Of a stretch of 64,000 nucleotides of DNA, positions 61,197 to 61,220 are shown piece by piece (the first letter of the stretch is position 1; each line of letters begins with the position of its first letter). The position numbers were made by a program, and so were the translations under genes. The stretch lies in NCBI RefSeq assembly GCF_022846255.1, contig NZ_AP025682.1; one strand, 5' to 3'. Below the pieces are notes generated by a model, which worked only from the letters and a program-made list of their open reading frames with translations, searched no databases and was not told where the DNA came from. The DNA is from Escherichia coli. Its GTDB lineage: Bacteria; Pseudomonadota; Gammaproteobacteria; Enterobacterales; Enterobacteriaceae.

Positions 61197-61220
61197 GGTT
61201 GGCGGGCTCGCCCGCCAACC
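61197..61220. terminator. perfect 11-nt inverted repeat between the convergent LysR-type gene and yjcE
   Basis: ggttggcgggc-tc-gcccgccaacc; GC-rich; no clean T-run on either side. Confidence 0.45.

Follow-up and report, generated by a model that had tools for sequence, protein, structure and literature searches.

A T-less perfect palindrome between convergent LysR-type and yjcE genes of Escherichia coli, a probable hairpin common to two mRNA 3' ends

The 64,000-nucleotide (nt) stretch of Escherichia coli DNA analysed here (contig NZ_AP025682.1, referred to below as the window) contains a perfect palindrome in the short gap between two convergent genes, one for a LysR-family regulator and the other, yjcE, for a Na+/H+ antiporter. 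The arms of the palindrome, GGTTGGCGGGC and GCCCGCCAACC, are 11 nt long, are complementary at 11 of 11 positions according to a repeat finder, and are separated by the 2 nt TC. The junction reads gag TAA gtcg GGTTGGCGGGC tc GCCCGCCAACC atgcaga TTA ctg, with the stop codon of the LysR-type gene at the left and that of yjcE, on the opposite strand, at the right. Most of the gap is thus palindrome, with a spacer of 4 nt (GTCG) on the LysR side, so that the palindrome starts at the fifth nucleotide after the stop, and a spacer of 7 nt (ATGCAGA) on the yjcE side. A first-pass annotation of the window had noticed the same palindrome at the same place, and this is borne out; the distances of 5 and 8 nt that it gave are inclusive counts of the same two spacers. 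Upstream of the regulator lie a CidA/LrgA-family gene and an LrgB-family gene (lrgA and lrgB below), followed by the terminator hairpin of actP, which is the left limit of a variable segment. The coordinates of these features are given in Table 1.

Folded as RNA, the palindrome forms a stem of 10 base pairs (eight G-C and two A-U) with a 4-nt loop, CUCG on the plus strand and CGAG on the minus strand, because the innermost C-G pair of the arms cannot close a loop of 2 nt. All of the pairs are Watson-Crick pairs, with no G-T, and for this reason the same hairpin is encoded in both transcripts. Its folding energy, taken alone, is -19.7 kcal/mol on either strand, comparable with that of genuine terminators nearby (-16.4 kcal/mol for actP and -19.2 kcal/mol for the one on the ghxP side), and equal stability in the two directions would fit bidirectional use. 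When the 81-nt context is folded, the hairpin dominates whichever strand is used (z-scores of -4.2 and -4.1). Neither direction has a T-run following the hairpin, the downstream RNA being AUGCAGAU on the plus strand and CGACUUAC on the minus strand, and no A-tract lies upstream of it; a terminator scan of the window does not call the site. The absence of a T-tail on either side, as first described, is therefore confirmed. A canonical intrinsic terminator can be rejected, since the GC-rich stem-loop is present but neither the U-tract after it nor the A-tract before it. An Rfam scan (E-value mode) of positions 58800-63200 gives no match at the palindrome.

The palindrome is beyond chance expectation. 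Its pattern is unique in the window even when three mismatches are allowed, and it occurs in none of 100 shuffled sequences. Perfect inverted repeats with arms of at least 11 nt and a spacer of at most 6 nt number two in the window; 40 first-order Markov simulations gave an average of 0.2. The only other palindrome in the window with arms of this length (AAGCCAACCTTAAG-AA-CTTAAGGTTGGCTT, arms of 14 nt) lies between two open reading frames (ORFs) on the same strand, at 6472-7809 and 7868-9556; it has an A-run before it and a T-run after it, and is therefore a canonical intrinsic terminator. Three further perfect palindromes have arms of 10 nt (Table 1).

Table 1. Coordinates of the palindrome, its neighbours and other perfect palindromes of the window (aa, amino acids).
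Feature	Position	Strand	Basis or remark
Palindrome GGTTGGCGGGC-TC-GCCCGCCAACC	61197..61220	both	Repeat finder, direct reading and fold
Left arm; right arm	61197-61207; 61210-61220		11 nt each
Convergent intergenic gap, 35 nt	61193..61227	.	Palindrome takes 24 of 35 nt
LysR-family regulator gene, 294 aa	60308..61192	+	ORF; Pfam HTH_1 and LysR_substrate; RefSeq annotation of identical locus
Stop codon (TAA) of LysR-type gene	61190-61192	+
yjcE, Na+/H+ antiporter gene, 549 aa	61228..62877	-	ORF; Pfam; RefSeq annotation of identical locus
Stop codon of yjcE	61228-61230	-
CidA/LrgA-family gene	59794..60204	-	Divergent from LysR-type gene; ORF; Pfam; RefSeq annotation of identical locus
LrgB-family gene	59112..59801	-	Stop 5 nt from actP terminator hairpin; ORF; Pfam; RefSeq annotation
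actP terminator hairpin TTCCCCGGTCGCTTGATCGGGGAA, then TTTCTT	59083..59106	+	Left limit of variable segment; common to K-12-type genomes
Palindrome AAGCCAACCTTAAG-AA-CTTAAGGTTGGCTT	7834-7863		Arms of 14 nt
Palindrome TACCGCGTGA..TCACGCGGTA	43320-43345		Arms of 10 nt
Palindrome CGTTATTGGTACCAATAACG	43888-43907		Arms of 10 nt
Palindrome CGGGGTCAAC..GTTGACCCCG	50792-50813		Arms of 10 nt

The perfect dyad symmetry of 11 + 11 bp could also be that of a DNA-level operator for a dimeric DNA-binding protein. LysR-type regulators recognize a T-N11-A motif, which the palindrome does not fit. The element lies downstream of both genes, no promoter-like site is found within several hundred bases of it, it is present in a single copy, and a GC-rich stem with a short loop is typical of RNA hairpins; we consider an operator at this position to be extremely improbable.

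Three arrangements of the segment between actP and yjcE, at 59074-61227 in the window, are found in the 5426 complete E. coli genomes that were compared. The LysR-palindrome-yjcE junction is present in 1035 of them, in which lrgB, lrgA and the LysR-type gene occupy the segment as in the window (state A). About 4100 genomes, a number obtained by subtraction, carry espX5 (= yjcF) there, as does K-12 (state B), and 264 have nothing but a gap of 81 bp (state C). The espX5 state of K-12 is AT-rich; state C resembles state B minus espX5, with the same terminator kept. In the genomes that lack the junction of state A, homology begins exactly at the stop codon of yjcE, and the palindrome is absent from the junctions of states B and C. 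Both show beside the yjcE stop the sequence AAAGGTGCA-loop-TGCACCTTTTT, which has an A-run at one end and a T-run at the opposite end and is a textbook example of a bidirectional intrinsic terminator. Like the palindrome, this terminator provides a single hairpin to the two convergent genes, and the two elements occupy the same position with respect to the stop of yjcE; the terminator differs in its A-run and T-run, of which the palindrome has neither. Since yjcE is followed by a canonical bidirectional terminator in the other haplotypes, some 3' structure is always present after it in E. coli. In one espX5-type genome, that of E. coli hubt-sl, the IS4-like element ISVsa5 lies at the 3' end of yjcE (2779-3987), replacing the last yjcE codons and the terminator.

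A 36-nt query around the palindrome matches only the 1035 genomes of state A, at one site each (two "places" are reported per genome because the palindrome is matched on either strand), and it is therefore not a dispersed repeat. The 1034 E. coli genomes with a complete copy are 100% identical in it. In the lone variant, strain TUM1857 (NZ_CP135709.1, 255-305), the left arm has lost its outer 4 nt through a local rearrangement, in which they and the end of the LysR-type gene are replaced by a copy of an upstream segment of the same gene (attttctcgccgcgatggttcaggccggtgtcggaatagccatat); the annotated LysR frame then runs through the palindrome and overlaps yjcE. Either a genuine variant or an error of assembly may lie behind this. 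Among 241 million metagenome records, scanned for the exact pattern, there were 22 matches, of which 20 are this locus and two are unrelated high-GC contexts; a viral scan returned none. Across the 20 metagenome copies of the locus the palindrome does not vary, and the last LysR codon is commonly polymorphic at position 61188, 2 nt before the stop, with GAG changed to GTG (Glu294Val) in 6 of the 20.

The restriction of the palindrome to genomes carrying the lrgB-lrgA-LysR block, together with the break in homology to other E. coli only 7 nt away, at the yjcE stop, speaks for one of the two interpretations first proposed, namely that it is a scar, an att site or a boundary element of a horizontally inserted islet. 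The comparison with genomes lacking the block, suggested in the first-pass annotation as a check, found no palindrome downstream of yjcE in them, so that this interpretation is not contradicted on that point; the result shows only to which haplotype the palindrome belongs, not that it is a scar. The history of the block itself speaks against an insertion. The block is found at 73-78% DNA identity in records of Citrobacter freundii, Salmonella sp. and Klebsiella pneumoniae; the gene order actP-lrgB-lrgA-LysR-yjcE-ghxP is common to Citrobacter and Salmonella, and in Klebsiella fimbrial genes replace actP. A scan with one genome per species finds orthologues of the LysR-type regulator, at 80-88% amino acid identity, in 80 loci of Citrobacter, Salmonella, Enterobacter, Lelliottia, Leclercia, Kluyvera, Kosakonia, Trabulsiella, Pluralibacter, Phytobacter and other genera, and yjcE is convergent on the regulator gene in nearly all of them, so that the pairing recurs in dozens of other Enterobacteriaceae.

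The divergence of the block is like that of its flanks. Identity to outgroups at third codon positions is 0.44-0.59 for the genes of the block and 0.57-0.65 for the flanking actP and yjcE, ranges that we regard as similar, and with Escherichia whittamii the corresponding values are 0.86-0.88 (block) and 0.86 (actP). The block has no GC anomaly, and the Pfam search finds in it only LrgA, LrgB and LysR domains and no mobility genes (integrase or transposase). At the left boundary there is neither a second copy of the palindrome nor a direct repeat; this boundary is just the actP terminator, common to states A and B. Because of its synteny with other Enterobacteriaceae and its flank-like divergence, the lrgAB-LysR block is, judged by sequence comparison, as old as its surroundings: it is ancestral and not a gain of this lineage, most E. 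coli having lost or replaced it. Haplotype breakpoints at the edges of constrained units, here a terminator and a stop codon, are expected without any boundary element. Citrobacter, Salmonella and Klebsiella keep the block without this palindrome and have repetitive extragenic palindromic (REP) elements in the same slot, as does Enterobacter. The scar or att-site interpretation, extremely unlikely on these grounds, was therefore rejected.

In many Enterobacteriaceae the CidA/LrgA and LrgB pair with its divergent LysR regulator adjoins acs-yjcH-actP, genes of acetate use, a neighbourhood that hints at a role of the block in carboxylate transport. Some of the records retrieved with this locus appear to be mislabelled or contaminated. 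Two metagenome-assembled genomes, labelled Oscillospiraceae and Citrobacter, carry the E. coli locus at 100% identity, and an assembly labelled Chryseobacterium carries an enterobacterial LysR-yjcE locus.

One other species alone, E. whittamii, has the palindrome, in a gap reading GACG-palindrome-ATGCAGG. A survey of 57 other species in which the LysR-yjcE gap is shorter than 300 nt shows REP elements or bacterial interspersed mosaic elements (BIMEs) in 24 (for example GCCGGATGCGGCGCAAACGCCTTATCCGGCCTAC in C. freundii), CCCTCTCCC...GGGAGAGGG repeats in 16, a private GC hairpin of -14 to -27 kcal/mol in 12, and essentially no gap and no hairpin in the remaining 5. A stable GC-rich hairpin of some family is thus present in 52 of the 57 species, and none of the 57 has a T-tail, counted as at least 5 T among the 8 nt that follow the best hairpin. 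That other T-less hairpins fill the same gap in other genera is a further point against a scar. Taken at the level of sequence, the LysR-yjcE junction is a turnover hotspot for T-less GC-rich hairpins, of which the version in E. coli and E. whittamii is private. About 16 more species have 0.5-3.6 kb of extra DNA, including genes, in the gap, one of them with a tandem array of REP-containing units, and the junction is therefore an insertion hotspot as well. Homology of the palindrome to the hairpins of other genera was considered and rejected, as the alignments are unconvincing; there is only a short resemblance, that of the right arm GCCCGCCAACCA to a REP-like arm of Trabulsiella, CCCCGGCAACCA.

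The palindrome has much in common with REP elements and BIMEs: it is a GC-rich, T-less, extragenic palindrome in a convergent gap, it fills a slot occupied by REPs in sister genera, and the same dual role can be proposed for it. REPs are defined by a GTAG tetranucleotide immediately 5' (CTAC on the other strand) and by an imperfect, bulged palindrome, of the y, z1 and z2 types in E. coli (PMC8266576). Membership of this class was rejected for the present element, in which GTAG/CTAC is replaced by GTCG on the plus strand (GACG in E. whittamii) and by GCAT on the minus strand, the arms are perfect and unbulged, and there is a single copy per genome, in contrast to the numerous dispersed copies expected of a REP. 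Another counterpart is provided by Rho-dependent transcripts. In K-12, 3'-end mapping by Term-seq has shown that these end just after stable, U-poor stem-loops, with more C than G downstream (Dar and Sorek 2018, PMC6061677); such stem-loops have the stability of intrinsic terminators and no upstream A-tract, and they protect the RNA against polynucleotide phosphorylase (PNPase) and RNase II (PMC6061677). The palindrome has a terminator-like energy, is poor in U and lacks an A-tract, and on these sequence criteria it is consistent with this class; the excess of C over G downstream of it is mild and shrinks over 100 nt. It would differ in serving two convergent transcripts at once. Likeness is also found to collision-type bidirectional terminators (Ju et al. 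2019; Wang et al. 2022 preprint), which lie between convergent genes, are not intrinsic-like and form a stem-loop in both nascent RNAs. Collision rates in that class are set by the expression of both genes, and the palindrome matches the class in position and fold only.

Based on its position, its structure and these analogies, we propose that the palindrome is probably a 3'-end stem-loop common to both convergent transcription units, the LysR-type unit on the plus strand and the yjcE unit on the minus strand. Most likely the hairpin, which resembles a REP without being one, would mark the 3' ends of both mRNAs and protect them once transcription has been terminated by Rho or with the help of collisions. 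If the hairpin forms in vivo, it would probably not release RNA polymerase alone, since there is no U-tract. Transcription would run a short way past it into the antisense of the opposite gene. There it would end through the action of Rho on C-rich RNA that is not translated, through head-on collision with polymerases coming from the other gene, or through both. PNPase and RNase II, exonucleases that degrade RNA from 3' to 5', would then shorten the transcripts as far as the base of the hairpin, leaving each mRNA with a defined and protected 3' end, as REPs may do in the same gap of sister genera. A comparable dual role has been described for REPs, which occur in about 30% of the convergent gaps of E. 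coli, are partly Rho-dependent terminators as well as mRNA stabilisers, and go together with higher expression of the two genes (bioRxiv 10.64898/2026.03.23.713779); at convergent pairs, a stem-loop is needed to position head-on collisions of RNA polymerases (bioRxiv 10.1101/2022.10.23.513370). The other interpretation first proposed, a Rho-assisted bidirectional stop, is compatible with all of the findings, given a stable U-less stem-loop common to both genes and a mild predominance of C over G downstream in both directions; it is plausible rather than proven.

Several observations weigh against a shared 3'-end hairpin, or weaken the case for it. The ratio of C to G in the first 50 nt downstream is 1.5 on the plus strand and 2.0 on the minus strand, compared with a median of 1.04 for random 100-nt windows, but the plus-strand value is below the 90th percentile of those windows (1.53), and over 100 nt the bias is mild (1.14 and 1.43, respectively). 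We found in the literature no mapping of transcript 3' ends for strains with this arrangement (B2-type). Since five species have almost no gap and no hairpin, the junction can do without one. REP-like elements may accumulate simply where insertions are harmless, which weakens any inference from recurrent hairpins to function. The argument from conservation is weak too, as it comes from one species pair, for which the probability that 24 bases remain unchanged, at the rates of divergence seen in third codon positions and other intergenic DNA, is about 0.02-0.08, and there is no covariation to be seen because only two species carry the palindrome, in identical copies.

These points leave room for the palindrome to be a neutral by-product, either a decayed and re-symmetrised remnant of a REP-like element or a palindrome perfected by template switching and tolerated in a harmless gap. 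The contents of the gap change fast between genera (REPs or BIMEs, CCCTCTCCC repeats, private hairpins, nothing, or inserted genes); this, the five hairpin-less species, the weak likeness of the right arm to the Trabulsiella element and the single species pair behind the conservation argument all agree with such an origin. The comparison of E. coli with E. whittamii argues the other way. All 24 nt of the palindrome, with its 11 of 11 matched arms, are identical between the two species, while 2 of the 11 flanking intergenic bases differ, as do 9-11% of other intergenic DNA, 14% of third codon positions in the LysR-type gene and 23% of those in yjcE. The uniformity of the full copies within E. 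coli, and the strong 3' structure that follows yjcE in every haplotype, point in the same direction. We regard a neutral origin as possible and, on balance, doubtful.

The close spacing suggests a third role, mainly translational, in which a stop-proximal hairpin hinders the terminating ribosome and lowers the expression of the upstream gene. Counting from the stop codons, the stem starts at a distance of 4 nt for the LysR-type gene and 7 nt for yjcE, and in many sister species a REP abuts the LysR stop. A distance of 4-7 nt past the stop codon is within the downstream footprint of the ribosome on the mRNA. Liang, Rudd and Deutscher (Mol Cell, 2015) are said to have found that a hairpin or REP within about 15 nt of the stop reduces expression of the upstream gene. 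This effect of stop-proximal REPs is alluded to in PMC6815119, and the original study is in the reference list of PMC8266576. The tight spacing may, however, reflect only the compactness of the gap, and a translational effect would be compatible with a 3'-end role; as the main function of the element it seems improbable. Under the preferred interpretation of a shared 3'-end hairpin, a possible side effect would be a slightly lower output of the LysR-type gene, as the terminating ribosome opens the base of the stem, which it must do because only 4 nt separate the stem from the stop.

It is, in our view, very improbable that the palindrome is a solitary DNA-level processing site with the layout of group-3 REPs, involved in the replacement of haplotypes between actP and yjcE, whose right breakpoint is 7 nt away. 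Group-3 REPs are short perfect palindromes preceded by a GTAG-like tetranucleotide, and the tetranucleotide here is GTCG. In a milder version of this idea, the hairpin would have arisen de novo and been selected to replace a lost REP; were that true, the junction would offer, in more than 50 species, a series of natural cases in which a hairpin was born independently.

The palindrome is thus of an ordinary kind, a private representative of a known class, and has only modest practical consequences. For the locus, its study corrects the polarity of change: the lrgAB-LysR block beside acs-yjcH-actP is ancestral in Enterobacteriaceae and has been lost from about 80% of sequenced E. coli, and the espX5/yjcF state of K-12 is derived. 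One outcome is that the 3' end of yjcE differs by lineage, some lineages of E. coli having a canonical bidirectional intrinsic terminator there and others a U-less hairpin; this natural pair suits tests of how terminator type relates to mRNA stability and to read-through between convergent genes. More widely in the family, the LysR-yjcE junction offers a compact example of the rapid turnover of T-less hairpins, whether REPs, other repeats or private hairpins, at one orthologous site.
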